Positions 3,426 to 58,491 of a DNA stretch of 64,000 nt are shown piece after piece. Below the pieces are notes generated by a model, which was given only the letters and a program-made list of their open reading frames with translations, made no database searches and was not told the origin of the DNA. Source of the DNA: Thermoprotei archaeon (GTDB taxonomy: Archaea > Thermoproteota > Thermoprotei > Thermoproteales > B15-G16). Position 1 is the first letter of the stretch. Each line of letters begins with the position of its first letter. The position numbers were made by a program, and so were the translations under genes. Location: NCBI GenBank assembly GCA_003649205.1, contig QMRC01000001.1, positions 96,001-160,000 on the forward strand, written 5' to 3'.

Positions 3426-3449
3426 TTCCCACACAGCAGTGGGGTCTAC

Positions 3450-3827: not shown

Positions 3828-3840
3828 GTAGGTGTTGTTT

Positions 3841-4038
3841 ATGGTGGCTCACGTACATAAGTGGTACGAGTACGACTACAAGACAGGGAAGATTAGGTTA
3901 CTTAGGAGGAAGTGTCCACGCTGTGGTTCAATAATGGCTTACCACAAGGTACCAGTACCGAGACATCACTGTGGTAAGTGTGGTTTCACCATATTTGAGA
4001 CTCAGGAGCAGGGGAGAGGTAGAGCTAGAGGTAGGTAA
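3841..4038 (+). CDS. rps27ae: 30S ribosomal protein S27ae
   Basis: KCPRCGSIMAYH...CGKCGFT zinc ribbon. Confidence 0.96.
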   Translation: MVAHVHKWYEYDYKTGKIRLLRRKCPRCGSIMAYHKVPVPRHHCGKCGFTIFETQEQGRGRARGR

Positions 4039-4048
4039 GTGCTAGCTC

Positions 4049-5717: not shown

Positions 5718-6288
5718 GATATACCTCATAACGAGCAATAGGCACAAGGTGGAGGAAGCAAACATAGCGCTGAAACCATTCGGTATCGAGGTAAAGCAGC
5801 TACACATTAAGAGACTTGAGATACAGTCAGATGACCTAGTTGAGATAGCTATATTTTCGCTAAGGGAAGTCATTAATCTAGTTAATGAGAGACCACTAGT
5901 TGTTGAGGATGCAGGCCTCTTCATACCAGCACTGAAGGGGTTTCCAGGACCATACAGCTCGTTTGTGTACAAGACAATTGGTTGTCAAGGAATACTGAAG
6001 TTAATGGAGGGTGTTGAGGATAGGAGAGCATACTTCAAGTCAGTGGTTGTGTACTATGACGATGATGTTGGTATGAAGGTCTTTGAAGGGACTGTATGGG
6101 GTAAGATAGCGACTGAGGTTAGGGGTACTCAGGGATTTGGCTTTGACCCTATATTCATACCTGAGGGAAGTACTAGGACCTTTGCTGAGATGGGTCCTGA
6201 AGAGAAGACTAAGTACTCACATAGGGGTAGAGCATTCAGGGCACTAGGTTACTGGATAAGGAATATATTGGAGCAGCAGAGTAAGTAA
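5680..6288 (+). CDS. rdgB: non-canonical purine NTP pyrophosphatase (Ham1/RdgB)
   Basis: TSNRHK, EDAGL, GFPGPYS, GFGFDPIF, SHRGRA. Confidence 0.96.
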   Translation: MLRKELGKGTLSRIYLITSNRHKVEEANIALKPFGIEVKQLHIKRLEIQSDDLVEIAIFSLREVINLVNERPLVVEDAGLFIPALKGFPGPYSSFVYKTIGCQGILKLMEGVEDRRAYFKSVVVYYDDDVGMKVFEGTVWGKIATEVRGTQGFGFDPIFIPEGSTRTFAEMGPEEKTKYSHRGRAFRALGYWIRNILEQQSK

Positions 6289-6293
6289 CCTAC

Positions 6294-6697
6294 CTACACC
6301 TTTAGGAGTTCTGTAAATTGAGCTAAGCTTGGTGATTTCCGCATAGCTTGCTCCAGAGGAACTCCGTGGTGTTGTAATAGCTCTCTAACAGCTTTATAGC
6401 TCTTGACGTATCTTCGTCCATACTTACCTGGAGATGGTGATCAAGGTATTGCTCTGGATCTTCTCGTAGTGAATCAGGATTCTTATGGAGGCAGAGTAGA
6501 GCCAGGATCCACGACTCTATCTTGGGATTTGCAGTAAGAATGAGGGCTCTAGAGTGTTGTCTCAGTTGATTCAGGTAACTGGGATTACCTTCAACATCCC
6601 TCAGATCTCTTAACACAATAACCTTCTCAGCATTTGCTTTATCTGTAGCTCCTTCAACTAGCACTAAGATCATCCATTGATCCCTACGGTGTACCAC
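6294..6697 (-). pseudogene. DUF4276/TOPRIM-like partner of ABC ATPase, frameshifted
   Basis: ILVLVEGATD and VIVLRD, IESWIL; alternative frame supplies KYGRRYVKSY...KSPSLAQFTELLKV* ending at 6294; N-terminal part looks shortened. Confidence 0.65.
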
Positions 6698-39971: not shown

Positions 39972-40063
39972 GCCGGGGTGGCCGAGCCAGGTCTAAGGCG
40001 CGGGCCTTGAGAGCCCGTGGCCCCATGGGGGCCGCGTGGGTTCAAATCCCACCCCCGGCGCCA
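39972..40063 (+). tRNA. tRNA-Ser(UGA)
   Basis: GCCGGGG acceptor, CGGGC-CT-TGA-GA-GCCCG anticodon arm, long variable arm, TTCAAAT loop, G73 and encoded CCA. Confidence 0.96.
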
Positions 40064-41130
40064 ATTCTCATCCCTAACTCCTCAAGCAATCTCTCGTAGA
40101 ACTCCCTCGGCTGTAGTTCATAAAACTCATCCCTAGCTTCCTGAAATATGTGAAGCCTAATGTCGAGACATAGGTGACATTTCGAGACATAACCGTCCTT
40201 ACGCTCTCTATATCCATAGTTCTCAACAGCAAACCTATACAACTCACCCAATCCCTTAGTCAGAGCACGTAGAATGGGGTAGTTATCGAGGTCAAGACCA
40301 CTGAGAATATCCTCCAACCTCCTAGCATCACCAAGACTCAAACCAGCGCAGTAACCAGGTACATAGTTGAAGAAGCAATCCACATGAATGTGCCATGGTC
40401 TAGTCAAGTCGTAGAGACAGTTCTCATGGAAGAAGTACTTTGCAGGATACCTCTCGTAGATGTAGTTTAGCCTGTACACAGCTCTACCCATAGGGAGAAT
40501 GAGGTCAGGGCTAAGATACGTACCGTAGTCACTACCAATCAATGACAGGTAATCCTCAAACCTCAATCTACCCCTAACACCAAGCACCTTAAACTGATGG
40601 TAGTAGATAGGATAGAACACAATGACATTACCCTCACCAAAGACCTCTCTAGCAATCTCAACAGCAAGATCAATTCTCTCAAAAGGAACAAACTCAATAA
40701 CAAAAGGATTAACACTAATCAAGACACCATCAAGACCCCTATCATATAGCTCACGAAATCTCTCATAAACAACCTCACGACTAGTACACCAAAAGCAATT
40801 AGTCTCAACAAAGAGACCAGGAACACCAACATCCTTAGCAACCTCAACAGCACGAAGCAGGATATCGTACCTAAGAAAAGGTTCACCACCAGTTAAGTGA
40901 AGACCATAGTTAAGACCAAGCAACCTCCTCCTATGAAAGACCTCAGGAGGATAGTATAACCTAAAGCAAGAAACCAACTTCTCAAGAACAACCCTAAGAC
41001 CAGCAAGATCAATCCAGTAATCACACCACCTAGGAGAACAAACGTACATACAGTGCCTACACTCACAACAACACCTATACGTAAGGAAGACCCCAGCAGA
41101 CAAAGGAGGTCTAGGTCTAAGAAACTTCAT
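40042..41130 (-). CDS. radical SAM protein
   Basis: TYRCCCECRHC, LTGGEPFL, VETNCFW, C-terminal SKCHLC. Confidence 0.88.
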   Translation of the reverse strand: MKFLRPRPPLSAGVFLTYRCCCECRHCMYVCSPRWCDYWIDLAGLRVVLEKLVSCFRLYYPPEVFHRRRLLGLNYGLHLTGGEPFLRYDILLRAVEVAKDVGVPGLFVETNCFWCTSREVVYERFRELYDRGLDGVLISVNPFVIEFVPFERIDLAVEIAREVFGEGNVIVFYPIYYHQFKVLGVRGRLRFEDYLSLIGSDYGTYLSPDLILPMGRAVYRLNYIYERYPAKYFFHENCLYDLTRPWHIHVDCFFNYVPGYCAGLSLGDARRLEDILSGLDLDNYPILRALTKGLGELYRFAVENYGYRERKDGYVSKCHLCLDIRLHIFQEARDEFYELQPREFYERLLEELGMRIGAGGGI

Positions 41131-43342: not shown

Positions 43343-43420
43343 TGGTGCCCCCGCCGGGATTTGAACCCGGGACCTCCCGGTTATCAGCCGGGCGCTATAA
43401 CCAGGCTAAGCTACGGGGGC
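43343..43420 (-). tRNA. tRNA-Ile(GAU)
   Basis: GCCCCCG...CCCGG-CT-GAT-AA-CCGGG...TTCAAAT...CGGGGGC-A-CCA. Confidence 0.96.
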
Positions 43421-44045: not shown

Positions 44046-44756
44046 TTACTTTGTGGACTTCACGCACTTAGCATATGTTGCACATAGATCTCTTGCAAAG
44101 CATTCACTACATCGTGGATTTCTAGCTTTACAGATAACTGCTGCGAAATCTAGCAGTGCTAGGTTTGCTCTCTTTGCATCAGGAAACATCTCAATAACTC
44201 TACTCAGCACATTGTGAACAAATTTAACGTGTTTTGGATTTTGTTGCTTTAGCTCAATACCGCTAATTCGTGAAATAACCCTAATTATGTTGGTGTCAAC
44301 TAGTGGGTCCTTGAAATTAAATGCCAGAACCCTCACAGCTCTAGCTACGTACTCACCAACCCCTGGAAGACTAAGTAATTCATTGAGTTCTCTAGGAACT
44401 TCACCACCATACCTCTCAACGAGTACTCTACCTAGTTCCTTCAATTCACGTGCTCTAGTATTGTGTAGACCAAGAGGTTGCAGTATCTTCCTCAATTCAT
44501 CTATGGATGCTAGGGCTAGAGCCTGTGGTGTTGGGTATCGTCTCACTAGCTCAAGGTAAACTGGAACCACCTTCTCACCTTGTGTTCTCCTCAGAAGTAG
44601 CTCAGCAACCAGGATCTTGTAGGGATCCTTCTCTACTCTCCAGGGTAATTCACGGTCTCTATTTAGAGAGATAGACCATGAGATAGCCCTCGTAATTAAT
44701 TCACATATACGACCTACTAAACCACAAACCCCCTGTAGCATAGACATTGTCAACAA
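44046..44756 (-). CDS. HhH-GPD DNA glycosylase with 4Fe-4S (MIG/MutY family)
   Basis: LPWR, AELLLRRT, LPGVGEY, VDTN, CKARNPRCSEC...C. Confidence 0.9.
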   Translation of the reverse strand: MLTMSMLQGVCGLVGRICELITRAISWSISLNRDRELPWRVEKDPYKILVAELLLRRTQGEKVVPVYLELVRRYPTPQALALASIDELRKILQPLGLHNTRARELKELGRVLVERYGGEVPRELNELLSLPGVGEYVARAVRVLAFNFKDPLVDTNIIRVISRISGIELKQQNPKHVKFVHNVLSRVIEMFPDAKRANLALLDFAAVICKARNPRCSECFARDLCATYAKCVKSTK

Positions 44757-44907: not shown

Positions 44908-46878
44908 TTACCGCAGAAGATTTCTGATGTCTTCGGGAAGGGATTCAATATCGATACCCAGCTTTATTAATGTTTCCTTTTTTGGTAATCCTGTTTCAAG
45001 ATCCCAACCACGTTCATCATAGTAATCATCTTGAATTCTATGCAAGTCATCTGTAGTTAGCTGAATTATTCCATAGTAATCTCTCAATTCGATAATTCCC
45101 TCTGGAGTATTCATGGGTCTAAGCCATGTTTTTGGAACTTTATCATCCTCTCTTGTAAATCCTTCACGTGCATTGAGTAATCTATAGAGGTTAAATGCTC
45201 TCTCTCCACATCTCAGTAATTCTTCAGCGCTAATTTCTTTTCCAGTGGCTGCTGAATAGGCTTCAGCTAAGTCATCTATTCCAAAGAAGCCGAAGAATGT
45301 ATACATTGAGCACGTACCGAGACTGTTGTGAACCATCATTCCATCTTCCATGTATTTCGTGTACCTACCAACGTTAAATGCTCCACTATATGGTGTGAAC
45401 TGGAATATTTGTTCAAGTCTATCTTTAGGAATCCCCCAATGTTCAAACTGCTCCCTAATCTCTTTAAGTGGTCGTAATACTTGTGCTGTTTTTGTATGGC
45501 AACCCCCGTGATGAGGCCTTGGATTGACAACGAATGTGAACATTAGTGGATGTAATCTAGCAGGTCTAGCATCGTATATGAAATCAACGCCTTTATTTAT
45601 ACCTGCATACCAGTATTCCTGTGGATCTAGACCATATTTTTCTGCAACTCCAAGCCATCCTTCAGCTAGATCATTACCTACTCCCTTTCTTTCTATAACT
45701 TCATAGAATAACCTTAAGTAGCAATTCCAGTCTCTCCTTATTTCCTCACCTAGCTTATCTTTTGGAATTGCTCCCTCTACGACCTTCTTTGTAAAGAAAT
45801 CTACTAACCTAGTAAATGTATAGTAGTCTAGACCTTCTCTATTAGCTAGACAGACAAGGTATATCATCTTATTATAGTCCTCTATACCCCATAACATAGC
45901 ACTTGTTGCACTTTTACCATAAGGTGATCCTAACCCCCACCATCCCGCGTAATCACCTGTCTTTATCCTCCACTTTATTCTGCATGCAATCAAACATGTT
46001 GGACAAGCATATGTTCTCTCTAGAGTCTCGAGTCTCTTCTCTTCTCCGCACAATCTATCCCATTTATCCTTAGGCCATATACCGGGGTATTGTGTATGTT
46101 TAAATGTTCTCCAACCCGCACCCATACCGAGCTTTATCCAATGTGGTCTATACGACCATTCCATTATTCTCCTTCTAACCTCTAAGACCTTCTTCATAAA
46201 TCTATCAGGGTCGGCTACTGTAATACCTTTTCTAGATCCCTTAACAACTATTGCTTTCAATTTCTTGGATCCAAATATAGCTCCTACTCCATTCCTTCCT
46301 AAGCTATCTCTTTTATCAACAATTGCCATAGCGTATCTAACTAGATGCTCTCCGGCTTTCCCTATAGCTACTACTGAGGCACACTTATTGTGTCTTCGTC
46401 TAAGCTCGTCCGTAGTTTCGTAGATATTCTTCTTACCCCAAAGATCTGAGGCATCATGTATTTCAATATCGTTATCAATTATTTTAAGGTAAACAGGCTC
46501 CTCGGAAGCCCCTGTAATAACAAGTCCATCGTATCCAGCAAGTTTGAGTTCAAGTCCGAGGTTTCCACCAACTACAGACACTGCTATGAAGTGTTTGTAC
46601 TTACCATCTTTCTTACCTGCAATAATTGGTAATTTAGTGAGAGCAATGGTTTTAGTTGCGCTTGGAAACGGTGTTCCAACGAGAGCCCCAGTAAATATAA
46701 TTAACGGATTTTTAGCAGAGAATGGGTCTATTCCTGGAGGTATCATGTCTATTGCAAGTCTAATGGCATAACCCGCACCTCCAATGTACTTGTCTACTAT
46801 TGTGTGGTCTATCGATGTTTCCTTTATCTTCTTTTCTGTTAAATCAACCCAGAGGATTTTCCCCGCGTATAAGTGCAT
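44908..46878 (-). CDS. aor: tungsten-dependent aldehyde:ferredoxin oxidoreductase family protein
   Basis: GKILWVDL, LKLAGYDG, GSKKLKAI, CPTCLIAC, YYDERGWD...GLP. Confidence 0.93.
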   Translation of the reverse strand: MHLYAGKILWVDLTEKKIKETSIDHTIVDKYIGGAGYAIRLAIDMIPPGIDPFSAKNPLIIFTGALVGTPFPSATKTIALTKLPIIAGKKDGKYKHFIAVSVVGGNLGLELKLAGYDGLVITGASEEPVYLKIIDNDIEIHDASDLWGKKNIYETTDELRRRHNKCASVVAIGKAGEHLVRYAMAIVDKRDSLGRNGVGAIFGSKKLKAIVVKGSRKGITVADPDRFMKKVLEVRRRIMEWSYRPHWIKLGMGAGWRTFKHTQYPGIWPKDKWDRLCGEEKRLETLERTYACPTCLIACRIKWRIKTGDYAGWWGLGSPYGKSATSAMLWGIEDYNKMIYLVCLANREGLDYYTFTRLVDFFTKKVVEGAIPKDKLGEEIRRDWNCYLRLFYEVIERKGVGNDLAEGWLGVAEKYGLDPQEYWYAGINKGVDFIYDARPARLHPLMFTFVVNPRPHHGGCHTKTAQVLRPLKEIREQFEHWGIPKDRLEQIFQFTPYSGAFNVGRYTKYMEDGMMVHNSLGTCSMYTFFGFFGIDDLAEAYSAATGKEISAEELLRCGERAFNLYRLLNAREGFTREDDKVPKTWLRPMNTPEGIIELRDYYGIIQLTTDDLHRIQDDYYDERGWDLETGLPKKETLIKLGIDIESLPEDIRNLLR

Positions 46879-46898
46879 GATTCTCACCTCAAACCATT

Positions 46899-47123
46899 TT
46901 ACTCATATCGGAGAGCACCATATGGACAAGACTCTACACATTTAAGACATGAATCACATCCGTCTAGTATTTCTGCGTGTGGATTTCCTTCTTCATCTTC
47001 GTATATGCGTATGAAGGCCTTGCTAGGATTGAACTCGTGGAAGTGGTGGAAGGAACACATGAATTGACAAGTCCTACATATTCTGCAATTTTCCGGAACG
47101 AATATTATTCTTTTCTGACTCAT
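46899..47123 (-). CDS. 4Fe-4S ferredoxin-like AOR partner
   Basis: CRICRTCQFMC and CDSCLKCVESCPYGAL. Confidence 0.9.
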   Translation of the reverse strand: MSQKRIIFVPENCRICRTCQFMCSFHHFHEFNPSKAFIRIYEDEEGNPHAEILDGCDSCLKCVESCPYGALRYE

Positions 47124-47839
47124 CTTTCACCCTCCATCATCTTCTTATATTCCTCTATTATTTCTACACCAGAACTGGTACCTATTCTATCCGCTCCCGC
47201 TTCTATTACTTCCAGTGCTTGTTTTGCTGTCCTTATACCGCCAGCAGCTTTTATTTTGACTCTATTCCCTACTATTGACTTAATGAACCTCACATCTTCT
47301 GCCGTTGTTGGCCTCCACTTGTGGAATCCTTTGAATCCCGTTGAAGTTTTTATGTAGTGTACTCCAGCCTCAATAGCTAGTTCACAAGCTATTTTTATCT
47401 CCTCTTTAGTGAGGTATGGTACTTCGATAATTGCCTTTACTATGCGGCCTTTAGCAGCTTCTACTATTTTTTTAAGTTCTTCTCTTACTTCATCTATTTT
47501 ACCACTTTTTAAGGCACCTTTATTCAAGACAAAGTCTATTTCTACTTCATCAGCTCCATCCTTGATTGCTCTTTCAACTTCAAGTACCTTAAGCTCTATA
47601 GGAACTGTACCAAGAGGAAATCCTATTGCTGCTGTGATTTTCACTCCTGTTCCCTTGAGGATTTCTCTAGCAAGAGGTATCATCGCTGGATAAATTGCAA
47701 CAGATGCGAATCTGTACTTTTTTGCGTTTAGGAGGAATTTTATAAATTCATCTTCGCTGTCTGGAACAATTTTGAGGTATGTTTGATCTATTCTTTTCGC
47801 AAGTTCTTCCACAGACAGCTTGATCACTTTACTATTCAC
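47120..47839 (-). CDS. deoC: deoxyribose-phosphate aldolase family (canonical lysines)
   Basis: IGFPLG, IKTSTGF, IKAAGGIR, RIGTSS. Confidence 0.92.
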   Translation of the reverse strand: MNSKVIKLSVEELAKRIDQTYLKIVPDSEDEFIKFLLNAKKYRFASVAIYPAMIPLAREILKGTGVKITAAIGFPLGTVPIELKVLEVERAIKDGADEVEIDFVLNKGALKSGKIDEVREELKKIVEAAKGRIVKAIIEVPYLTKEEIKIACELAIEAGVHYIKTSTGFKGFHKWRPTTAEDVRFIKSIVGNRVKIKAAGGIRTAKQALEVIEAGADRIGTSSGVEIIEEYKKMMEGER

Positions 47840-48617
47840 CTCTTAGCTTTGATTTAGGATCTTCCTTAATCAATCTAATTACCCTTTCATATAAAAGTTC
47901 CTTTTTCTCCTCTGATAATGCTTCCCACGCTTTCTCGAGAGTATTGAAGACATCTTCTGGTGTGCTTGTTGCAATTCTATCGGCACCCGCTTCCAGCATG
48001 CTAAGAGCTATTTCAGCATTTCTAACACCGCCTGCAGCCATAACCTTTATTTTATCTCCGTAATTATCCTTGATAATCTTCACATGCTCAGGTAGCGTCT
48101 TTAACCCATAGCCGCTATTGGTTTTTATGAAATGAGCACCGGCCTCAATAGCGATCTTTGTAAATAGTTTTATTTCTTCAGGAGTCAGGAATGCTGTTTG
48201 TGGAATTACTTTGACAATTACGTTCTCGGATTCAGCTATCTTAACTATTCTTCTAATTTCCTCCTTTAACAGATCGTACTGACCAAACTTAAAGTAGTAC
48301 ATATTTACAGCAACGTCAAGCTCATTAGCTCCTTGCTCAATAGCCCATTTAGCTTGTTCAACTTTAATATCTGTTGGTATTCCTCCAGTAGGGTATGCGA
48401 TTGGTGCTACTACATCAATTTTTGTGCCTTTAAGCAGTTTCACAGCAAGAGGTATGTAGTATAGATCTACAGCTATTGCTGCATATGGATACTTCTTATG
48501 GTGTTCAATGAATTTTCTGACTTCCTCTTCAGTAGTATCGGGTTCTATCAGTGAGGTATCCATTATTCTAGCTAGGAGATCTACCGTGAGTTTATATTTA
48601 CTCCCCATAACGTACAC
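47832..48617 (-). CDS. divergent DeoC-family aldolase
   Basis: IAYPTG, ELDVAVN, IKTNSGY, VMAAGGVR, RIATS. Confidence 0.85.
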   Translation of the reverse strand: MYVMGSKYKLTVDLLARIMDTSLIEPDTTEEEVRKFIEHHKKYPYAAIAVDLYYIPLAVKLLKGTKIDVVAPIAYPTGGIPTDIKVEQAKWAIEQGANELDVAVNMYYFKFGQYDLLKEEIRRIVKIAESENVIVKVIPQTAFLTPEEIKLFTKIAIEAGAHFIKTNSGYGLKTLPEHVKIIKDNYGDKIKVMAAGGVRNAEIALSMLEAGADRIATSTPEDVFNTLEKAWEALSEEKKELLYERVIRLIKEDPKSKLRGE

Positions 48618-48701
48618 CCGAATGGGCTGTCTAGCTGTTAATAGTTGTGTGAAAAGGGTAGTTAAAGAAATATATGTGGATTTCTATCTTTGTCAACAAA
48701 G

Positions 48702-50261
48702 TTAGAAGATGTTGTACTTTAGTCCTACTTCAAATAGTTGCTTATAAATGGAATCGAGTGTTCTCCAGATGTTCTTATACACTTTGTATATCTCAGTGTA
48801 TATTTTGTGTGCTTCTGAATCAGGCTTCTCTACTGCTATATCTCTTATTAATTTTTCAACAATGCTGTAATCCTTGTAAATACCTACGCCAATACCAGCG
48901 GCAACTGCTGCAGCTAGGCAGTTTGCTTCTTGGAGTAGTTCTGGAACAAGTAGTTCTACTCCTAAGACATCTGCCATAATTTTTCTCCAGGTAGCATTTT
49001 GTGCACTACCACCTATTAACCTAATGAGTTCGATTTTTGCACCTTCTTCTCTGAAGATTTCTATGATTTCTCTCATTGTTAATGCTACTCCCTCCATTAT
49101 TGCTCTTATGAAGTGTTCTTTTCTATGGGCTAGCGTTAGGTTGAGGAAGCCTCCCTTTATGTAGCTCTTGTTGTGTGGTGCACCTCCACCCATTAGGTAC
49201 GGGAGAAATACTAGACCCCCACTTCCAATAGGTACTTGTTCAGCTTTAATCTGGATAACGTCATATATGCTGATACCAGCTCTCTCAGCTCCTTCCTTTT
49301 CTGATATCAGAAAATGCTCAATAAACCAGTCAATACTAGCTGAACCGCTGTGAGTGAATTGATGAGGAGTGTACTTTCCAGGTATCATGCTACATAACGT
49401 ACATATGCGGTACTGTGGACTTATCATTGGGGAGTTTGTGAATATCCCAGACCAGAAGGCTGTACCAGTACATATGTATGAGATACCCTCTTTGACAACG
49501 CCAGCACCGACTGCTGCAGCTGGTACGTCACCAGCACCCGCTACTACTGGTGTTCCTGGTTTTAGACCTGTTACTTTAGCAGCTTCATCAGTTACATAAC
49601 CGACAACATCATGAGACTCATAGAGATCAGGAAGCTTATCCATATCAATTCCCATGAATGAAACGACCTCTTCGTCCCATGTGCGCTTGTGAATATTGAG
49701 CATTCCGGTGTTTGATGCGTCAGTGTAGTCACTTGCTATCTTACCAGTTAATTTAAGCCTAATGTAATCCTTACATTGGATGAACTTATGTGTCTTCTCG
49801 TATATTTCGGAAAGATGCTTCTTTATCCATGCTATTTTAACAAGTGGATACATAGGTACAGCCATGCCAGAACCTGTTCTCTTGTAAAATTCTTCCCATC
49901 CAAAGTTTTTCTCAAGATGCTCACTTTCCTCAACAGCTCTCATGTCTTCCCATATAATGACTCTCTTCATTAAGAGATTACCTTCTTTATCTACAGGAAC
50001 AGCACCCATCATTTGTCCACTGAATGATATGGCTGCAATTTTTTCAGGTGGTATCTTCGTTTTCCTTAGGATATTCCTCGTAGACTCAACAACAGCCACC
50101 CACCATTCTTCAGGGCTCTGTTCGACCCATTGGGGTCTTACGTAATAGGTATTGTAACGTCTATACTCACGTGCAATAGCTCTTCCCTCGGTGTTGAATA
50201 GTACTGCTTTAACACCAGAGGTGCCAAGATCGTAAACTAGAAAATATTCCTTCTCTACCAT
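48702..50261 (-). CDS. FGGY-family carbohydrate kinase (xylulokinase-like)
   Basis: DLGTSGVK, FSGQM, DASNTG, GAGD, FLPYL, RAIMEG. Confidence 0.93.
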   Translation of the reverse strand: MVEKEYFLVYDLGTSGVKAVLFNTEGRAIAREYRRYNTYYVRPQWVEQSPEEWWVAVVESTRNILRKTKIPPEKIAAISFSGQMMGAVPVDKEGNLLMKRVIIWEDMRAVEESEHLEKNFGWEEFYKRTGSGMAVPMYPLVKIAWIKKHLSEIYEKTHKFIQCKDYIRLKLTGKIASDYTDASNTGMLNIHKRTWDEEVVSFMGIDMDKLPDLYESHDVVGYVTDEAAKVTGLKPGTPVVAGAGDVPAAAVGAGVVKEGISYICTGTAFWSGIFTNSPMISPQYRICTLCSMIPGKYTPHQFTHSGSASIDWFIEHFLISEKEGAERAGISIYDVIQIKAEQVPIGSGGLVFLPYLMGGGAPHNKSYIKGGFLNLTLAHRKEHFIRAIMEGVALTMREIIEIFREEGAKIELIRLIGGSAQNATWRKIMADVLGVELLVPELLQEANCLAAAVAAGIGVGIYKDYSIVEKLIRDIAVEKPDSEAHKIYTEIYKVYKNIWRTLDSIYKQLFEVGLKYNIF

Positions 50262-51220
50262 ATTTACTCACCTCCTTAAATTGTACTCAACTTATTAAAG
50301 ATTTCATTTAAGTTCCTGAATGATGACTTGAAGAGTTCATATAGCTTCTCATATATCTCCACGTTTTCTGGTGTGGGCTCAACAACTTTCTTTATCTTAA
50401 CGACCCTTTCTGCGGCCTCCTCATAGGATTTCCATAGGCCTACACCAATACCTCCCATGATTGCTGCTCCAATAGCTGTTGTGTCTTGAGGATTCTCTAG
50501 TACGATCATCTTCATGTTTAGAATATCTGCATGAATTTGCACCCATAGGTCACTTAGAGCGCCGCCTCCTATTGTCCTAAACTCTCCCCACTTACGTAGT
50601 GGTATGCCTGCTTCTTCGAACTGCTCAACTAACCATTTGAATGCAAAAGCTACTCCTTCGAGTACAGCTCTGTAGAAGTCAGCCCTCTTTGTATGTAGGG
50701 ACGTTATGCCTATAAATGCTCCTCTTGCATTAGGATTCCAGTGTGGACCTCCACCACCTGCAATGTATGGGATGAATATTAATCCACCACATCCAGGTTT
50801 AACTTCTCTAGCCTTTGATTCATAGACATCAAGAACTTTTATTCCTAAATTGCTTAGGATGCTTTCCTCTATACCTAGGAATGTGCTCTTAAACCAATCG
50901 ACTGATAGACCTCCTGCAGATATGTATGAGAACGGCGTGTACTTACCTGGAATCGCTGATAAGAAGTTGTTTATACGTGCCTTTGGGTCTAGTATCGGCT
51001 CATGAGAAAATGCTGCTAGCTGACTTGCTGTACCGATGTAGCAATAGGCTGTTCTCTCTTTGACAACGCCAGCACCCACCGCTGCGCAAATGCTATCACC
51101 TGATCCTGCTACTACTGGTGTTCCTGGTTTTAGACCTGTTACTTTAGCAGCTTCATCAGTTACATAACCGACAACATCATGAGACTCATAGAGATCAGGA
51201 AGCTTATCCATATCAATTCC
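49540..51220. repeat. 113-bp perfect direct repeat (49540-49652 and 51108-51220)
   Basis: identical by eye, GCTACTACTGG...ATATCAATTCC; lies inside both kinase genes. Confidence 0.9.
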
Positions 51221-51676
51221 TGCTGCTTCAAGGATTTCCTCAGAGTACTTTCTCTTCCTTACGTCTAGCCATCCCGTGTTTGAAGCTCCACCGTAGTCAC
51301 CTACGAACTTTCCTGTTAGCTTAAGTATTATGTAGTCCCACGTTTGTAGGAACTTGTATGTTCTGTTGTAGACTTCAGGTTCATTTTCCTTTAACCACAT
51401 TACTTTGGATATAGAGAGCATGCCTAGTGGGTGGCCGAGACCATGAATCTTGTAGAAATTCTCGTAACCTCCTAGCTTCTCTACAAGCTTCTTTCCTTGT
51501 TCTTCTGCTCTCAAATCCGCCCAAATCATTACGTACTTACGTACAACTCTACCTTCTTTATCTACGGGGACACATCCAGGGAAGTGCCCACTGAATGATA
51601 TGGCTGCAATTTTTTCAGGTGGTATCTTCGTTTTCCTTAGGATATTCCTCGTAGACTCAACAACAGCCACCCACCA
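50017..51676. repeat. 89-bp perfect direct repeat (50017-50105 and 51588-51676)
   Basis: identical by eye, CCACTGAATG...CCACCCACCA; lies inside both kinase genes. Confidence 0.9.
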
Positions 51677-51853
51677 GTCCTCGGGACACTGCTCAACCCA
51701 TAGGGGTCTAGGACGGTATGTTGGGTATGGTCTGAACTCTGAAGCAACAAGGTTACCCTCACTGTCTACTAGGACTGCTTTATCACCTGAGGTACCAAGG
51801 TCATGTGTTAAGATATATATCTCGTCCTTTCGAGGACTGGCCATCTCTACCAT
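50276..51853 (-). CDS. FGGY-family carbohydrate kinase (xylulokinase-like)
   Basis: DLGTSGDK, WADLR, ASNTG, GSGD, RAVLEG, GGGA. Confidence 0.93.
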   Translation of the reverse strand: MVEMASPRKDEIYILTHDLGTSGDKAVLVDSEGNLVASEFRPYPTYRPRPLWVEQCPEDWWVAVVESTRNILRKTKIPPEKIAAISFSGHFPGCVPVDKEGRVVRKYVMIWADLRAEEQGKKLVEKLGGYENFYKIHGLGHPLGMLSISKVMWLKENEPEVYNRTYKFLQTWDYIILKLTGKFVGDYGGASNTGWLDVRKRKYSEEILEAAGIDMDKLPDLYESHDVVGYVTDEAAKVTGLKPGTPVVAGSGDSICAAVGAGVVKERTAYCYIGTASQLAAFSHEPILDPKARINNFLSAIPGKYTPFSYISAGGLSVDWFKSTFLGIEESILSNLGIKVLDVYESKAREVKPGCGGLIFIPYIAGGGGPHWNPNARGAFIGITSLHTKRADFYRAVLEGVAFAFKWLVEQFEEAGIPLRKWGEFRTIGGGALSDLWVQIHADILNMKMIVLENPQDTTAIGAAIMGGIGVGLWKSYEEAAERVVKIKKVVEPTPENVEIYEKLYELFKSSFRNLNEIFNKLSTI

Positions 51854-52659
51854 CCCGTATACTACTTTCTTTTCATGTACTGAATCTTACGGATATATAA
51901 AGATTTTCGTTTCTACTATAAAAAGAGACGAAATTCGCATGATTTACATAGTTCTCACATGACTGTTTCTGTATAATTTGATAACTTTTCAATTTCATCA
52001 ATTAATCATTAGTATTCCTCTAGTTTCTCTTTAGTAGTATATGCTGTGTTACATCTAAATATCAATATACGGTTCTATCTGCTCCCTTTAGCATCTAAAT
52101 GTAATTATTGTTCAATTCTTTCACCACTATAGCTCGTGTATTAGGTATTGGCTATAATAAGGAACCTTTCAAGGAGTAATACCTGCTGTTCAAGCACTCT
52201 CTGAGGAGAGTACACATTGATGTTGAAATCGAAACTATCAAAACTATACCATTAAGCAAAACTATTCTAATTGAGTTGAGAATGAAGTGTAGGATTGAAT
52301 GTTTGTTAATGTTGCCTACATAAACACTGTTACTAGATACCGAACATTACTAGAATGTGGTTTTTAAAGGTATATGATTTTAGCTTAGGAATGAATATCT
52401 GCTGAGAAGTAAGTCATTAAAGTTATTGATAAGGTGCTAAAATATAACATGACACACTTACATTAGATTGATTACCACAACAAAGATCATAATAACGACG
52501 TAGTTGTGCTTACAGATCTCGGTAACTATTTTTGTACTATGTAATAACTTTTTAACTAACTTTAATTAACACTTATTAGCAAAAGAAAAATTGAAAAATT
52601 TTTAAATAAAAGTGGCTCTACAACCAGTTACCGATCAGGTTAATAAGGGGTATACGGAT

Positions 52660-53952
52660 ATGTCGATCCTAGAGTTCATAGTAAATCTCTTTAGACAACC
52701 AGCGCTATTCATAGGGATCATAGCTTTAATAGGTTACCTACTAATGAAAGAAGACATAAACAAGACCATAATAGGATCCATAAAAGCTGCTGCAGGGCTT
52801 GCCATCCTATTATGGGGCGTAGGCTTTATGTTTCAAGGATTACAACCAATAGGCACCGTACTAGCAAAAACAGTTGGAGTAAAGCCTCTTGAAGTGACTG
52901 TCGGTACGAGTAAGATCATACGTCAGTACGGTACTGAGATAGGTATAGCTATGATAGTGATGTTCTTAACGAATCTATTCTTAGCAAGAGTAACTAAGAT
53001 GAAATATATATACCTAACGGGCCAGTTATATCTATTTGTTACATGGATTCTAACAGGCATCTTTGCATATACTTGGGGCCTTTCTGGAATACCACTGGCA
53101 CTTGTAGTAGGAGTTGTTTCCGGTATATACGTAACGATCCAACAATGGTATACAGCAAAATTTGCGCTCGCTATTAATCCTAAAAAGGATTACGTCCTAG
53201 GACACATATGTTCACTAGGTGTATTGATAACATCATTGATCTTCACAAAAGGAGGAAAACAGCTCGAAAGGCCATCACATGTTAGAAGTATGGAGGAGAT
53301 GACCTTACCAAAGAAATTACAGTGGATAGGAGAGACAACAGGCCTACTCTTTGTGCTGTTCCTAGTAATTTACTTAGTACTGATAGGATTAAACTACCCA
53401 GAATGTCTTAAACTGGCAACAGCTGCTGGCATGCATCCTGTTGTATGGGCAATCATGCAATCACTAACATTTACAGCAGGCTTCGCTGTTCTCATATTAG
53501 GCGTTCAGCTTCTTGTAGAGAACTTAATTCCTGCCTTTAAAGGTATAGCGTTGAAACTAGTTCCCGGTGCATTGCCTGGTCTTGATGTTCCAATGTTCTA
53601 TGTATTTGCACCAAAGACCACTGCGATCACAGGCGTAATTGGAATAATAGCACAAGTGGCGTTTGCTCTCATAGTCATGGCGCTAGGATACCCCTACTTC
53701 ATCTTTGCTCCTTCAGCGTGGGTATGGTTCCATGCAGCATGTGCCGGAGTATTTGGGAATCACTTCGGAGGAATAAGGGGTGCCATCACGGGTGCCATCA
53801 TTACAGCCTTGCTCATGGTTATAGGACAAATGATATTGACCCCAATACTGGGGCCTATAATAGGAGATTACTTCATGTGGGGCGGCGATCCTGACCTCCA
53901 AATATATGGCAGCATTATAGCGTGGCTAGGTAAGATGGTTACGGGACACTAG
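52660..53952 (+). CDS. ulaA: PTS ascorbate-family IIC permease (UlaA/SgaT-like)
   Basis: QPALFIGIIALIG, KYIYLTGQ, LGH, LIPAFKGIALKLVPGALPGLDVP, GVFGNHFGGIRGA. Confidence 0.88.
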   Translation: MSILEFIVNLFRQPALFIGIIALIGYLLMKEDINKTIIGSIKAAAGLAILLWGVGFMFQGLQPIGTVLAKTVGVKPLEVTVGTSKIIRQYGTEIGIAMIVMFLTNLFLARVTKMKYIYLTGQLYLFVTWILTGIFAYTWGLSGIPLALVVGVVSGIYVTIQQWYTAKFALAINPKKDYVLGHICSLGVLITSLIFTKGGKQLERPSHVRSMEEMTLPKKLQWIGETTGLLFVLFLVIYLVLIGLNYPECLKLATAAGMHPVVWAIMQSLTFTAGFAVLILGVQLLVENLIPAFKGIALKLVPGALPGLDVPMFYVFAPKTTAITGVIGIIAQVAFALIVMALGYPYFIFAPSAWVWFHAACAGVFGNHFGGIRGAITGAIITALLMVIGQMILTPILGPIIGDYFMWGGDPDLQIYGSIIAWLGKMVTGH

Positions 53953-54135
53953 CTATTACTTCAAAGCTTTGTTATATTTTTTACAAATTTTTAAGTCCTC
54001 TTAAGCAATTCCAAAACGCCTTCGAAGTGTTTTTGTTCATAGTATCGAGGTTAAAGCCTCAATACCTCCTAATCTTCTTCCATAAAGTTTTTATACCTTT
54101 AAGTGAAAGTCGAGTAGCTCTCGGAGGGTACATTA

Positions 54136-54813
54136 ATGGTACTGTGCATTATCTTTGATTTTGATGGAACACTTGTAAATACAAATGCTATACAGATTTC
54201 AATACTGGAAAATATCTTCAAAGAGTATCGTCTTGGTTCAAGGGAAATCTTATTGAGATACTTTGGGTTAAGAACTCAGGATTTCTTTGAAAAAGTACTA
54301 CCGGATGCAAGTGAAGAATTGAGAAGTAAGTTAGTTAATAAATTTTTAAGCGAGTATAAGAGGAGAGTTTTACTTGAAGCGGAGGTATTTCCAGACGTTA
54401 TTCCCACATTAGAGTCATTAAAGAACTATGATATAAAGATTGCAATTGCAACGTCTTCTCCGAAATCAATAGTTGAGCCTCTTCTCACTAAGACTAAACT
54501 AATTCAATTTGTAAATTACTATGTTACTGGGGACGATGTGGAACATGGTAAACCACATCCAGAAAGTGTATTTAAGATTCTTAACGTATTCAATATTCCA
54601 CCTAGTAGGTGCATTGTGGTAGGAGATACATTTTTTGATGTAAAGATGGCAAAGAATGCTCATTGTAAAGCGGTTCTCATAGTAAGAACCCCAATTTTTA
54701 TTTTCTCGTCAGAAGCACCTCTTCCAGATGTCATAATACCGAGGTTGCAAGATCTTATTTGGGTTATAAGGGAATGGTTTCCAGAAGAACTACTACCGCA
54801 TAAGCGAAAGTAG
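54136..54813 (+). CDS. HAD-superfamily hydrolase
   Basis: FDFDGTL, ATSS, KPHPE, VGDT..D. Confidence 0.9.
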   Translation: MVLCIIFDFDGTLVNTNAIQISILENIFKEYRLGSREILLRYFGLRTQDFFEKVLPDASEELRSKLVNKFLSEYKRRVLLEAEVFPDVIPTLESLKNYDIKIAIATSSPKSIVEPLLTKTKLIQFVNYYVTGDDVEHGKPHPESVFKILNVFNIPPSRCIVVGDTFFDVKMAKNAHCKAVLIVRTPIFIFSSEAPLPDVIIPRLQDLIWVIREWFPEELLPHKRK

Positions 54814-54924
54814 GTAACTACATTATATATGTACCCATTGCTATGTCATTGCGACTCTTATAGTTACGTATTTATGCATTACGATTTCCTTAAATACTGA
54901 AAAGAGTTCTTCAACTATACTCTA

Positions 54925-55150
54925 TTGCAGACTGATCTAAAAGTAGGGGTAGTTAATAGAACAGGTCTCCAGATAAGATCTGCTGTACTCTTTGTTGATA
55001 TGTATCAAAAATTTGAAGTCAGATATAAGGGTAATTCAGGGAAAAAAGCTAACGCTAAAACATACTTCAAGTCCTTACTCTGGGAGTCGATATGAGTAAC
55101 AAAAGTAACAAAAATAGTGCAAAGGTAATGATTAGAGAGGTCTTGTAATG
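54925..55150 (+). pseudogene. ptsH: HPr phosphocarrier remnant
   Basis: VVNRTGLQIRSAVLFV..YQKF / SDIRV..GKK / ANAK / ILQVLTLGV, compare HPr GLHARPA...NAKSI; frameshifts, and His15 position reads Gln. Confidence 0.7.
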
Positions 55151-55429
55151 AGTATGGATTATGGATGATGTTTATTTTTCATAATGATTCTTGCTACAAT
55201 ATTAATTTACTCTTTTCAACTGTTCTAGAACCTAGCTAGTTAGGTTACTAAAGTCTCTTATCTAAAAGATTACTTTCATTTGTGTTAAAGACCATACGAG
55301 GTAATTTAGCTAGACTCTACGTCGATAAGATTTAGTAGAGCTCCATTACAGATACAGATAAAGAACTATCAGGTGTTTAGCTGTAAATGCACAGGCTAAT
55401 GTCTATGTTAGTTTAGTCGTGTTATACCC

Positions 55430-55695
55430 TGAATAGAGTTCTTTAACATTTTTACCTGTAATTTTCATCGACTGAATTCTTCAATCCTACAGTTATCTTT
55501 ACACGCTCTCTGAGTTCTGGTTCATGAAGTATTGAAGCAGTAACCATATCCGCTCTGCTGCTTTTGCAGTCAATAACTCTATAGCTTTGATTTTGCTGGA
55601 ATCTCTATTTCTTCAATCACACCTTCAACAAAATATCCTCATGATTGGTGGGCTTTTCTGTTCAACACCGCAAATAGTTAAAACTTGAATGATTT
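55430..55695 (-). pseudogene. PTS EIIB (UlaB-like) remnant
   Basis: IQVLTICGVEQKSPPIMRIF / VEGVIEEIEIPAKI / ADMVTAS...VGLKN, compare UlaB ILAVCGNGQGSSMIMKM. Confidence 0.65.
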
Positions 55696-55799
55696 AGTGA
55701 GTTTGTAGGCGTATTTAGAGCATCATAAGCAACTTAAATTTAACTACTATATAAGGAGTGGAGAAGTAGGGGTTGCTATTGATTACTTACTATCGATTA

Positions 55800-56975
55800 T
55801 ATGTTAAGAACCTCTTAGTACTGGTCTAGTAGGTCTTTGAGTAGCCACATTATAAGGCTGCTTCTTTCCGACCTCCGGAGGGATTACCAAATATAGCTAC
55901 TGCTTCGCTTAGGAAGAATAGCATCTTCATCAATAGCACTATTATTGTGAACCTTGTAAAGAAGAATATTGCCATGAATATCAAGAATATAGTGAGTCCA
56001 CTCACAAACTCTATGACTATAGTTACTGGTGTTCATGGGAAGACAACTGGACAGTCTAGTACTAGTTAGCTCTTGGTATGATTTTCATAGCTAAACCCCT
56101 GAAGGCTGGTATGACCTCAGCTATGAACATCTTAACTCTGGTTAGTAGTACAATGATTGATGTAGCGAAGTACACACCTTTCAGGGATGCCCATGTACTG
56201 GATTGAGTTACCTTGCAAGTCCCTACACTTTAGCTGGGTTTATGAAGTATCCTGTAATGGATGTCATTACCATTATAAGTCCAAAGCCTTCAGAGAACTT
56301 AATTTCGTCTATACTTTCTTCTAGCTAGCTAACGTACTCACCTAGCATATAAGCTAGGTGAGCAGCGAGAGAACTAGTATTTCCATGAGTTATTTCATCT
56401 GTATTTATAATGGTTCTCATAACTCTGTTTAGGTATGCTGGCTGAATACTTTAGTACAGTGTTATGACTATGAACCCTATAGCTACCAACTGCTATGGAG
56501 GAATATTTGGGCCTATAGTTAGTTTGGTAATGTTACTACTACAGTTAGTGAGACTCACCGCACTAAGTGACCTGTTGAGTAAACGAATTTCATGGGTGTG
56601 AATTTGGCAGTGAATAGACGAATTATGAATCCTAAGTCATTATTATAGCTGTGTAGCTTCTGTACTTAGCTATTAAATCGCTTATAAGCTAACATAGTCA
56701 AGTGGGTATTTAGGAGTTAAACCTGCAACGCTACCTAATAGATTCTGGAGGTTTTTCTGGAAATTTATTAGCTCTTGAACGAATAATGTTGCTCTAGTAG
56801 TTGTTATTCCTACTCCTCCATTACTTTGGATGTACTGATGATAGCATTGCTAAAAGGTTTTCTGAATCATAAACCTAGTGAAACCTACTAGACCTAGCAG
56901 TATTATCGGTTGACCAATACTATGTTTCTAGCTATCCAGACGAGTACATCAAGCACTTCTAGATTCTTCTCTCAG
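55800..56975 (-). pseudogene. second UlaA-like PTS IIC, heavily decayed
   Basis: fragments GQPIILLGLVG, AKFTPMKFVYSTGH, VKMFIAEVIPAFRGLAMKIIP, LDCPVVFP, AIFGNPSGG, with many stops and frameshifts. Confidence 0.8.
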
Positions 56976-57244
56976 AAATTTTCCTATATACAATTCCCTA
57001 TGTGTGGTAATGATAGAATAGTAAGTTTCCATTTTAGTAAATAATGTTTAGTAAAGTGGGCTCGGGATGTTAACCTGTAAGGAATTGCAAAACAGATTTA
57101 AAGGGTTTAAATTCTGTGTAGTTAGTATCTCACTATGCCGCTTGTACCTAAAGAGACCCTATAATGTAGGTGCTTTTAAACACAGTAGCAAGTGAAATAA
57201 CGCAAAACACAAATAAACACAATTTCTTATACTCACACGGGCGA

Positions 57245-57335
57245 GCCGGGGTGGCCTAGCCTGGTCCATGGCGGCGGCCTGCTAAGCCGCTGGGGCAGTG
57301 GCCCCGCCCGGGTTCAAATCCCGGCCCCGGCGCCA
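57245..57335 (+). tRNA. tRNA-Ser(GCU)
   Basis: GCCGGGG acceptor, GCGGC-CT-GCT-AA-GCCGC, long variable arm, TTCAAAT, G-CCA. Confidence 0.96.
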
Positions 57336-57734: not shown

Positions 57735-58142
57735 ATGCCTTGTGAACGATATATTGACTGGCTGGATGAAGCTCTCGATGATTATGGTACTGCTGAGGAT
57801 CTCTTTCGGCTAGGTAGGTACAGTAAGACCTGTTTCTTCTGTCATCAAGCATGTGAAAAAGCTCTCAAGGCTTTACTAATCAAGAGAGCTGGTCGCTATG
57901 TACCGATACATAGTGTTGCTGAGTTACTTAGGATTGCTGCTTCGATCACTAATGTACCTAGTGAGTTAGTTAGAAAGGGTGATGTCTTGGATCGATTCTA
58001 CATACCTACCAGGTACCCTAATGCATGGCCTTCAGGTGCACCCTACAAGCACTACACTAGGGAGGATGCTGAGTTAGCTCTTAGATATGCAAGGGAGGTG
58101 CTCGAGTTTGTTAAGAGAGAGATTGAGAGAGATTCTAGCTAG
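57735..58142 (+). CDS. HEPN-domain protein
   Basis: CFFCHQACEKALKA, IHS, YIPTRYP. Confidence 0.9.
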   Translation: MPCERYIDWLDEALDDYGTAEDLFRLGRYSKTCFFCHQACEKALKALLIKRAGRYVPIHSVAELLRIAASITNVPSELVRKGDVLDRFYIPTRYPNAWPSGAPYKHYTREDAELALRYAREVLEFVKREIERDSS

Positions 58143-58491
58143 AGTGAGTTCTCTCGATCTTCTTGACGACTTGGTGAAAGTTCTGGAGGACTTAGTGAGG
58201 AGCTATAGACCTCTCTCTATCATTATTGCTGGTTCTCTTGCGAGAGGGGACTTCATTAGGGGGTTGAGTGATATTGATGTTCTAGTTATTGTTGGGTACT
58301 CTGTTGATAAGTTTAGTAGATTTCTGTTGAGAGCTGTTGATGAGGTTGATGTTGAGATTACGGTGTTTAGTCTTGAGGAGGTTATTGAGTGTATTGAGAG
58401 AGGTAATGAGTTTGTGATTGATGCTCTTGTACGTGGTTGTGAAGTATATGGTAATCTACGGGGTGTACTGCTTAGATATGTCAAGCGTTAA
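58087..58491 (+). CDS. minimal nucleotidyltransferase (MNT); start uncertain
   Basis: GSLARGD...SDIDVLVI; paired with HEPN. Confidence 0.88.
   Translation: MQGRCSSLLRERLREILARVSSLDLLDDLVKVLEDLVRSYRPLSIIIAGSLARGDFIRGLSDIDVLVIVGYSVDKFSRFLLRAVDEVDVEITVFSLEEVIECIERGNEFVIDALVRGCEVYGNLRGVLLRYVKR

Follow-up and report, generated by a model that had tools for sequence, protein, structure and literature searches.

We analysed a 64,000-nucleotide stretch of DNA from a Thermoprotei archaeon (hereafter the window; the host genome comprises 2.07 Mb in 31 contigs and is 93.8% complete), and our results suggest that its positions 44908-54813 hold a horizontally acquired catabolic island, a phosphotransferase system (PTS)-independent form of a module that is conserved among anaerobic bacteria and in a few archaea. 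We give this reading, each step of which we infer, a probability of about 0.5. The island encodes two FGGY kinases (K1 and K2), two aldolases of the deoxyribose-phosphate aldolase (DERA) family (DeoC_A and DeoC_B), a ferredoxin and an enzyme of the aldehyde ferredoxin oxidoreductase (AOR) family, together with a divergent EIIC-GAT permease (IIC) and a HAD hydrolase. A small sugar would enter through the IIC, working without IIA or IIB, and one or both kinases would phosphorylate it with ATP, replacing the role that the PTS has in the versions of Bacillota and Thermofilaceae. DeoC_A and DeoC_B, possibly as a heterodimer, would cleave the phosphorylated sugar to give a triose phosphate plus a short aldehyde. 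The AOR-family enzyme would then oxidise an aldehyde product and hand the electrons on to the 2x[4Fe-4S] ferredoxin co-translated with it. As for the substrate, the simplest guess is a 2-deoxy-aldose such as 2-deoxy-D-ribose, in which case deoxyribose 5-phosphate would yield glyceraldehyde 3-phosphate and acetaldehyde, and acetaldehyde would be converted to acetate. As the kinases, the aldolases and (formerly) the IICs are doubled, the arrangement suggests two related substrates.

The first-pass annotation of this DNA had made the proposal depend on whether the genes ever co-occur elsewhere, and the set does recur in many genomes. Because of this recurrence, a dedicated module for uptake, phosphorylation, cleavage and oxidation is a reasonable reading. 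Relatives of the AOR that are 48-56% identical to it number in the hundreds, and nearly all members of its clade in the genome collection searched are bacterial. We sampled 30 genome loci whose AORs are 47-52% identical to that of the window, 29 of them labelled bacterial or "uncultured bacterium" and one unassigned; they come from Thermotogota, Bipolaricaulota, Chloroflexota, Bacillota, Spirochaetota, Actinomycetota and Aerophobetes, and from several entries given as "uncultured bacterium". Besides these, the AOR-centred search gave a locus from Thermofilaceae and a locus belonging to another clade. When the 30 loci were searched by tblastn with the eight proteins of the window, the small ferredoxin was found in 24 (a ferredoxin homologue lies directly upstream of the AOR in 24/30); 18 had an FGGY kinase within the flank, 8 had DeoC genes, 3 had EIIC-GAT and 2 had HAD, and a kinase or an IIC was present in 21. 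The loci are mutually related and their flanks unequal, and these counts describe recurrence and are not a statistical test. DeoC_B, DeoC_A and AOR occur in the order seen in the window at three Bacillota loci (L104, L122 and L133) and at the Thermofilaceae locus (L134). Five AOR matches and DeoC_B matches lie on contigs of equal size, one of them an Asgard contig with 122,528 bp, and these equal sizes suggest that the two genes are co-located in further genomes. The combination had not been recognised as a described pathway in the first-pass annotation, and full-text literature searches likewise gave no description of it.

About 22 of the related loci are of an ABC type, with GntR, FGGY, binding protein, ATPase and permease genes and a second arm, divergent or alongside, which holds cyclase-fold, glyoxalase-fold, ferredoxin, AOR, DHDPS-type aldolase and 2-hydroxyacid dehydrogenase genes; in three of these loci (L115, L129 and L130) there are also four DeoC genes together with a LarA-like gene. 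The PTS type (L104, L122, L133 and L134) has IIA, IIB and EIIC-GAT in 4/4 loci and EI and HPr in L104, L133 and L134, with EIIC-GAT and IIB doubled in L104 and L122. In the bacterial PTS-type loci, the AOR is followed by a 160-amino-acid polyferredoxin and an FAD oxidoreductase, and there is a PRD regulator in L122 and L133 and an SDR with a HAD protein in L104 and L133. HAD homologues are weak (24-26% identity) and were found in 2/30 AOR-clade loci, both of the PTS type; the window HAD is probably a sugar-phosphate phosphatase, and its place in the module is uncertain. ORF (open reading frame) clustering and Pfam scans detected no kinase in the four PTS-type loci, as expected if PTS and kinase are interchangeable, and the two therefore look like alternative routes for phosphorylating the same kind of substrate. 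Judged by gene content, the window mixes a PTS-type core (IIC, the B-A aldolase pair and AOR) with two ABC-type elements, the kinases and the small ferredoxin. It is a hybrid, partly decayed module, with a decayed second IIC, no IIA or IIB, and kinases of the ABC variant.

The two aldolases make up a conserved pair. Both proteins score above the TIGR00126 equivalog cut-off of 117.3 (Table 1), and their active-site columns were tied to E. coli DERA (1jcl) through the homologue P0307, with a chain index equal to the residue number plus 1. In DeoC_A, D102, K164 and K197 occupy the columns of Asp102, Lys167 and Lys201 (E. coli numbering), as in a full DERA member. DeoC_B keeps the equivalents of Asp102 and of the Schiff-base Lys167 and has Met in the Lys201 column. 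Lys201 is described as critical for the activity of E. coli DERA, in which it perturbs the pKa of Lys167, in a review (PMC6244999), and DeoC_B is for that reason either a non-standard catalyst or a partner subunit. Loss of this lysine is shared by all the nearest relatives of DeoC_B, the closest of which (61% identity) belongs to an Asgard metagenome-assembled genome. Among 91 aligned DeoC proteins (window pair excluded), the Lys201 column holds Met in 19, Ile in 2, Glu in 8 and Asp in 1, and a profile search of 1.84 billion representatives gave roughly 15-20 clusters without Lys201 among the best 150 matches, the remainder being canonical. Each Lys201-less DeoC adjoins a DeoC with Lys at this position (11 pairs in 8 loci); one such partner, L115:3752-4465, lacks the Lys167 equivalent. 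There were also two B-A fusion proteins (466 and 476 amino acids) among the 150 cluster representatives, which may be gene-calling errors. Modelled as a complex, DeoC_A and DeoC_B scored 0.94, against 0.45 for the best control, with contacts agreeing to at least 96% between runs and a partner pLDDT of at least 92; the mark used is attained by 58/80 solved complexes and 2/110 mismatched pairs. DERA homodimers have been solved, and the score may therefore simply reflect the likeness of the two proteins. Paired canonical and Lys201-less genes appear to form an undescribed DERA subfamily. The genome has two more canonical DeoC genes on another contig in a housekeeping context (C3:42171-42908 and C3:248587-249219), and these separate copies point to a specialised role for the window pair. 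The two housekeeping copies have identical family scores and lie about 206 kb apart in opposite orientation, which reflects either a large inverted duplication or assembly redundancy. At L115, L129 and L130 (about positions 3000-6500 in each), the four DeoC genes form two divergent A/B pairs whose B members have Glu or Asp in place of Lys201, and the LarA-like (Lar_N) gene is upstream of the ferredoxin-AOR unit.

The ORF list and the Pfam and NCBIfam scans confirmed every gene of the first-pass annotation at its position (Table 1), and its account of six tightly packed minus-strand genes, divergent from the IIC and HAD genes, is borne out by the ORF coordinates. The minus-strand genes are transcribed in the order K2, K1, DeoC_B, DeoC_A, ferredoxin and AOR, with 14 nucleotides between K2 and K1, 84 between K1 and DeoC_B, overlaps of 8 (DeoC_B/DeoC_A) and 4 (DeoC_A/ferredoxin), and 11 between ferredoxin and AOR. 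The divergent intergenic region presumably holds the promoters of both transcription units. A search for sequencing runs gave one DNA run, probably of the source sample, and none of RNA. AT-richness relative to the surroundings and a position between two tRNA genes had also been noted, and both hold. Positions 44908-54813 have a GC content of 39.6%, compared with a mean of 43.25% (standard deviation 1.2) for the 9.9-kb windows of the genome, 1.5% of 1827 of which are equally low; the stretch from tRNA to tRNA (39.1% GC) is the lowest of its size in the genome, with 0/1747 equally low.

Table 1. Features in and around the putative catabolic island (window coordinates)
Feature	Position	Strand	Evidence or remark
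tRNA-Ile(GAT)	43343..43420	-	ARAGORN; Rfam tRNA 72.2 bits; left edge of AT-rich stretch
AOR/WOR-family oxidoreductase, 659 aa	44908..46887	-	Pfam AFOR_N 3.1e-65, AFOR_C 3.5e-54; uncharacterised clade
2x[4Fe-4S] ferredoxin, 74 aa	46899..47123	-	Fer4 family matches; two CxxCxxCxxxC motifs
DeoC_A, canonical deoxyribose-phosphate aldolase	47120..47839	-	TIGR00126 225.6 bits; Asp102/Lys167/Lys201 equivalents
DeoC_B, DERA-like paralogue	47832..48617	-	TIGR00126 176.3 bits; Lys201 to Met
FGGY kinase K1 (XylB-like), 519 aa	48702..50261	-	FGGY_N and FGGY_C; TIGR01312 387.1
FGGY kinase K2 (XylB-like), 525 aa	50276..51853	-	FGGY_N and FGGY_C; TIGR01312 389.4
Divergent intergenic region between K2 and IIC, 758 nt	51854..52611		29.7% GC
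Intact EIIC-GAT (UlaA/SgaT-type) permease, 446 aa	52612..53952	+	PF03611 2.2e-67
HAD-IA hydrolase, 225 aa	54136..54813	+	HAD_2 9.3e-41
Decayed second EIIC-GAT gene	55865..56495	-	PF03611 fragments with stops; blastx, tblastn
tRNA-Ser(GCT)	57245..57335	+	ARAGORN; Rfam tRNA; right edge of AT-rich stretch

Several lines point to horizontal acquisition, and the low GC content and the tRNA flanks fit an imported island. K1 has no orthologue in 40 genomes of the same order (best match, 34% identity), and no IIC homologue was found in these 40 genomes. In a sample of 401 genomes of the phylum, which includes the window's own genome, EIIC-GAT homologues are present in 5 others. No integrase and no direct repeat of either tRNA end was seen between the two tRNA genes, where tracts shared by K1 and K2 are the sole long direct repeats. 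The AOR tree gives no clear donor, and none can be named because the window AOR stands on a long branch.

A number of findings weigh against a functional pathway of the kind proposed. At the level of the enzymes, DeoC_B lacks Lys201, the residue called critical (PMC6244999); the AOR lacks equivalents of Thr243 and Glu313, which are kept in nearly all characterised aldehyde-oxidising clades (PMC12096430); and Asn431 of the AOR is unique to the window, Cys being present in 16/16 aligned relatives. K1 and K2 score as xylulokinases, just above the cut-off. Known deoxyribokinases (DeoK) belong to the PfkB family, not to FGGY. In a kinase-centred metagenome search, which gave 80 loci, many of them on short contigs, 8/80 had any other gene of the cluster; DeoC was present in 3/80 and an AOR-family gene in 5/80, these AORs being 26-31% identical and of other clades. 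The closest kinase homologue (57%, L024) lies with a CUT2 ABC transporter, a DHDPS-type aldolase, dehydrogenases (among them a 2-hydroxyacid dehydrogenase), an SDR, and cyclase-fold and glyoxalase-fold genes, and neither DeoC nor AOR was found on its contig. Identity between the intact IIC and those of PTS-type loci is only 27-31%, and the nearest archaeal IIC (44%) stands beside IIA and IIB without aldolases; the tie of the IIC to the operon thus rests on adjacency. In a FastTree analysis of the AOR (58 rows, made up of 24 consecutive matches and one more from 120 listed, plus the AORs of the loci), the window AOR falls on a long branch and groups with ABC-type rather than PTS-type loci. Uptake, ATP-dependent phosphorylation, aldol cleavage and aldehyde oxidation, as proposed in the first-pass annotation, are thus partly supported, by the recurrence of the gene set, and need refining in view of the active-site losses in DeoC_B and the AOR and of the hybrid, partly decayed nature of the window.

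The IIC of the island had been described as an orphan, and in the host genome there was no family match to PF02302 (IIB) or PF00359 (IIA); tblastn with the IIA and IIB proteins of related loci gave no match for IIA and one for IIB (E=0.83). The description holds as far as cognate partners are concerned and needs qualifying in that the genome encodes EI, HPr and a mannose-type IIB and IICD about 30 kb away on the same contig. This mannose-family PTS (G000:C1:176500-183500; L007 4555-11476) comprises EI, HPr, IIB-sorbose and a fused IIC-IID, and adjoins a GlmS-like amidotransferase/SIS protein. The best NCBIfam match of the intact IIC is the ascorbate IIC (293 bits, below the cut-off of 380). 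At the other archaeal EIIC-GAT loci examined, IIB is beside IIC in 6/6 and IIA in 4/6, and the window IIC is unusual as an orphan because all six have an adjoining IIB. SgaT homologues may act as secondary carriers; we found no relevant literature on orphan members. The decayed IIC is 36% identical to the intact one and 43-51% identical, over 39-42 amino acids, to IICs that adjoin DeoC in PTS-type loci. It lies within an ORF-poor stretch of 2.4 kb (54814-57244; 35.9% GC; no long ORF), in which IIC fragments were the only remnants found, with none of IIA, IIB, EI or HPr.

It is conceivable, though in our judgement improbable, that the island is the decaying remnant of a transferred PTS-type module, with no working pathway, a stranded IIC and an impaired AOR. 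The decayed second IIC close by and the lack of IIA and IIB in the genome would be expected in that case, and the replacement of Cys431 by Asn, seen in this AOR alone, may be a further sign of impairment. The AOR of L134 is also a fragment (residues 335-554) with in-frame stops, and because L134 is the sole other archaeal locus, parts of the module seem to be readily lost in archaea. However, eight intact ORFs, with minus-strand ends that overlap or nearly touch, speak against decay, and the kinases offer a route of phosphorylation that makes IIA and IIB dispensable. A probable second assembly of the same or a near-identical organism has a 100% identical AOR and DeoC_B on a 485-kb contig, an identity that counts against decay but says little on selection.

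The kinases pass the cut-off of the XylB equivalog (TIGR01312, 380.25) by a margin of 7-9 bits. They are 51% identical to each other and have outside relatives at 57% and 51%, and they are old paralogues since each has relatives elsewhere at about the same distance. Two exact tracts, one of 113 nucleotides (K1 49540-49652; K2 51108-51220) and one of 89 nucleotides (K1 50017-50105; K2 51588-51676), suggest gene conversion between genes that otherwise are about 50% identical. In a second assembly on record (P0002), K1 carries K2 sequence between the two tracts, reflecting either recombination or an assembly chimera. Both proteins keep the invariant columns of a 10-sequence kinase alignment, for example the N-terminal DxGT..K and the GD motif, which argues that they are competent kinases as far as conserved residues can tell. 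An alternative is that they are true xylulokinase-like enzymes acting on a ketopentose or a polyol, with the DeoC pair and the AOR serving another branch or acting on a ketose phosphate and not on a 2-deoxy-aldose. Both kinases pass the XylB cut-off, the best solved relative of K2 is E. coli xylulokinase (2itm, E=2.4e-64), and such kinases occur with an AOR in 18 loci next to a DHDPS-type aldolase and a 2-hydroxyacid dehydrogenase, mostly without DeoC. The narrowness of the pass tells against this alternative, as does the cluster itself, in which the ORF list and the Pfam and NCBIfam scans turned up no isomerase, epimerase or transketolase. The donor used by the DERA family is, moreover, an aldehyde and not a ketose (established knowledge; see also PMC6244999), and we regard a pentulose or polyol route as unlikely.

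The best solved relatives of the AOR in a single-protein search are broad-spectrum AORs (9mqx, 3e-63; 1aor, 3e-57), it has the AFOR_N and AFOR_C domains, and its Fe4S4 ligands C295, C298, C302 and C526 lie in the aligned motif columns. The four second-shell residues, given here in PfAOR numbering (Thr243, Glu313, Tyr427 and His448), are only partly retained: Tyr427 and His448 have equivalents in Tyr438 and His464, while alignments with PDB structures place Met255 at Thr243 and Gly324 at Glu313, with no acidic residue close by. These replacements are shared by the clade, with Met or Leu for Thr243 and Gly or Ser for Glu313 in 17/17 aligned sequences. According to a 2025 review (PMC12096430), these four residues are all retained in most characterised aldehyde-oxidising AOR clades, and many AOR/WOR clades remain hypothetical, most of them without a known physiological role. 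Because the window AOR lacks Thr243 and Glu313, plain aldehyde oxidation is a function that we infer and do not take as given. The ferredoxin is presumed to be either the electron acceptor or the small subunit of the AOR. The window AOR has Cys463 (GGCH) where its relatives carry Ser, Asn, Leu or Ala; close to the active site, Asn431 and Cys463 may compensate for each other. In L115, L119 and L130 and in the metagenome loci L042 and L057, an FGGY kinase has an AOR of a different clade (26-31% identical) next to it or nearby, and in the metagenome locus L078 the two are a few kilobases apart; in L119 this second AOR lies at about position 6500, and in L115 and L130 at about 15700. These neighbourhoods suggest that AOR-family enzymes and XylB-like kinases are linked more widely, in a way not yet characterised.

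The unusual active sites of both DeoC_B and the AOR raise the more speculative possibility that the AOR clade, the ferredoxin and the DeoC pair represent an unrecognised pathway widespread in anaerobes. A heteromeric DERA (a catalytic A subunit and a Lys201-less B subunit with altered specificity) and a non-canonical tungsten enzyme would here process a phosphorylated deoxy-sugar other than deoxyribose 5-phosphate. Deoxy-sugars and dicarbonyls from thermal or Maillard breakdown of carbohydrates are a candidate source. A role of this kind would agree with the genes that accompany the AOR in bacterial loci (glyoxalase-fold, cyclase-fold, 2-hydroxyacid dehydrogenase, LarA-like and DHDPS-type), and the substrate of the AOR would be an aldehyde that is phosphorylated or unusual in some other way. 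We consider such a pathway a long shot.

A related alternative, which we hold to be slightly less probable still, is that the AOR does not oxidise the free short aldehyde and, as an analogue of GAPOR, acts on a phosphorylated aldehyde that the two aldolase types have in common, such as glyceraldehyde 3-phosphate, or else catalyses a non-aldehyde reaction. ABC-type AORs stand beside a DHDPS-type aldolase (pyruvate plus aldehyde) and PTS-type AORs beside DeoC, and the product class common to both types of loci would be the acceptor aldehyde, not acetaldehyde. The departure of the active site from the canonical one, with loss of the Thr243 and Glu313 equivalents, is in keeping with another substrate, and the many invariant basic residues, such as those of an RPRPHHGG motif, could speculatively bind phosphate. 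However, we saw no sequence affinity to GAPOR/GOR, the best solved relatives being broad-spectrum AORs, and central metabolism does not normally need a pathway-specific glyceraldehyde 3-phosphate oxidoreductase.

An Lsr-like system for a phosphorylated dicarbonyl (AI-2/DPD-like), in which an FGGY kinase is followed by a DeoC/LacD-fold enzyme, is very improbable: the AI-2 kinase is the third-best NCBIfam match of K1, LsrK (5ya0) is the third-best solved relative of K2, and ABC-type loci carry an Lsr-like CUT2 transporter and a glyoxalase-fold protein, but the AI-2 kinase scores (266.7 bits for K1, and 220.2 bits) are far below the cut-off of 528, both aldolases are TIGR00126 DERA members and not LsrF, and Pfam and NCBIfam scans of the eight genes, which included no search aimed at LsrG-like or LsrR-like families, gave only the families named here, with neither LsrG nor LsrR among them.

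Returning to the sugar-catabolic module that we favour, we compared it with characterised systems. The classical deo route of E. coli and Salmonella consists of the DERA encoded by deoC, a deoxyribokinase and nucleoside phosphorylases. The module resembles it in having a full DERA member, DeoC_A, and in the logic of phosphorylating first and then cleaving to glyceraldehyde 3-phosphate and acetaldehyde. It differs in that the kinases are FGGY and not PfkB enzymes, as DeoK is; in that a further DERA paralogue, without Lys201, accompanies the first in every case; in that the aldehyde would be disposed of by an AOR-family enzyme with its own ferredoxin; and in that uptake would be through an EIIC-GAT permease. 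Nucleoside phosphorylase and phosphopentomutase were not found in the window cluster by Pfam and NCBIfam scans. SPU metabolosomes, which occur in bacteria and Hodarchaeales and combine a DERA with an acylating acetaldehyde dehydrogenase in a protein shell, similarly couple DERA genetically to a dedicated aldehyde-oxidising enzyme, as reported in a preprint (10.1101/2025.11.08.687404). Unlike these, the window genome has no match to the bacterial microcompartment shell family PF00936, oxidation in the window would be ferredoxin-linked and CoA-independent instead of NAD/CoA-linked, and the window has uptake of a free sugar and kinases. Among known systems, the logic of the deo route and of the SPU metabolosomes is the nearest.

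Like the characterised AOR/WOR enzymes (AOR sensu stricto, with P. furiosus AOR 1aor, and FOR, GAPOR/GOR, WOR5/ASOR and BamB), the AOR has a two-domain AFOR architecture, the Cys motif for Fe4S4 and equivalents of Tyr427 and His448. Some bacterial versions are followed downstream by genes for a polyferredoxin and an FAD subunit, an arrangement also seen in AorABC-type enzymes. The AOR differs in that its matches to solved members are at 3e-63 or weaker, in the replacement of Thr243 and Glu313, and in that its clade is embedded in sugar-catabolic loci. Similarly, the IIC belongs to PF03611 with the PTS for L-ascorbate (Ula/Sga) and galactitol (Gat) and has an ascorbate IIC as best NCBIfam match, whereas IIA and IIB are lacking in the genome and UlaD/E/F-type genes in the cluster. 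The likeness to Lsr (LsrACDB, LsrK, LsrF and LsrG) is in the succession of an FGGY kinase and a DeoC/LacD-fold enzyme and in the CUT2 transporter of bacterial ABC-type loci; the window kinases, by comparison, are below the LsrK cut-off and the aldolases are of the DERA type.

The same core genes recur in many anaerobic bacteria, as a set that appears to be undescribed. An uncharacterised AOR clade thus gains a conserved context that points to sugar catabolism, with concrete candidate substrates. DERA is an important biocatalyst, and a naturally occurring form that differs in catalytic set-up or in donor range would be of practical interest. The window also shows how a bacterial PTS module can be rebuilt in an archaeon, with ATP-dependent kinases in place of IIA and IIB and an orphan IIC that may be a plain carrier.

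Some neighbouring features were also recorded. Between tRNA-Ile and the AOR gene, and within the AT-rich stretch, lies a gene for a MutY/Nth-like HhH-GPD DNA glycosylase (44046-44756, minus strand), which probably has no connection with the sugar genes. On the plus strand at 39972-40063, a third tRNA gene, for tRNA-Ser(TGA), overlaps the 3' end of an unannotated 362-amino-acid ORF without a Pfam match (40042-41130, minus strand). Just past tRNA-Ser(GCT), at 57735-58491 on the plus strand, a HEPN-domain ORF of 135 amino acids overlaps the next ORF of 134 amino acids, and the two are probably a HEPN/nucleotidyltransferase pair.

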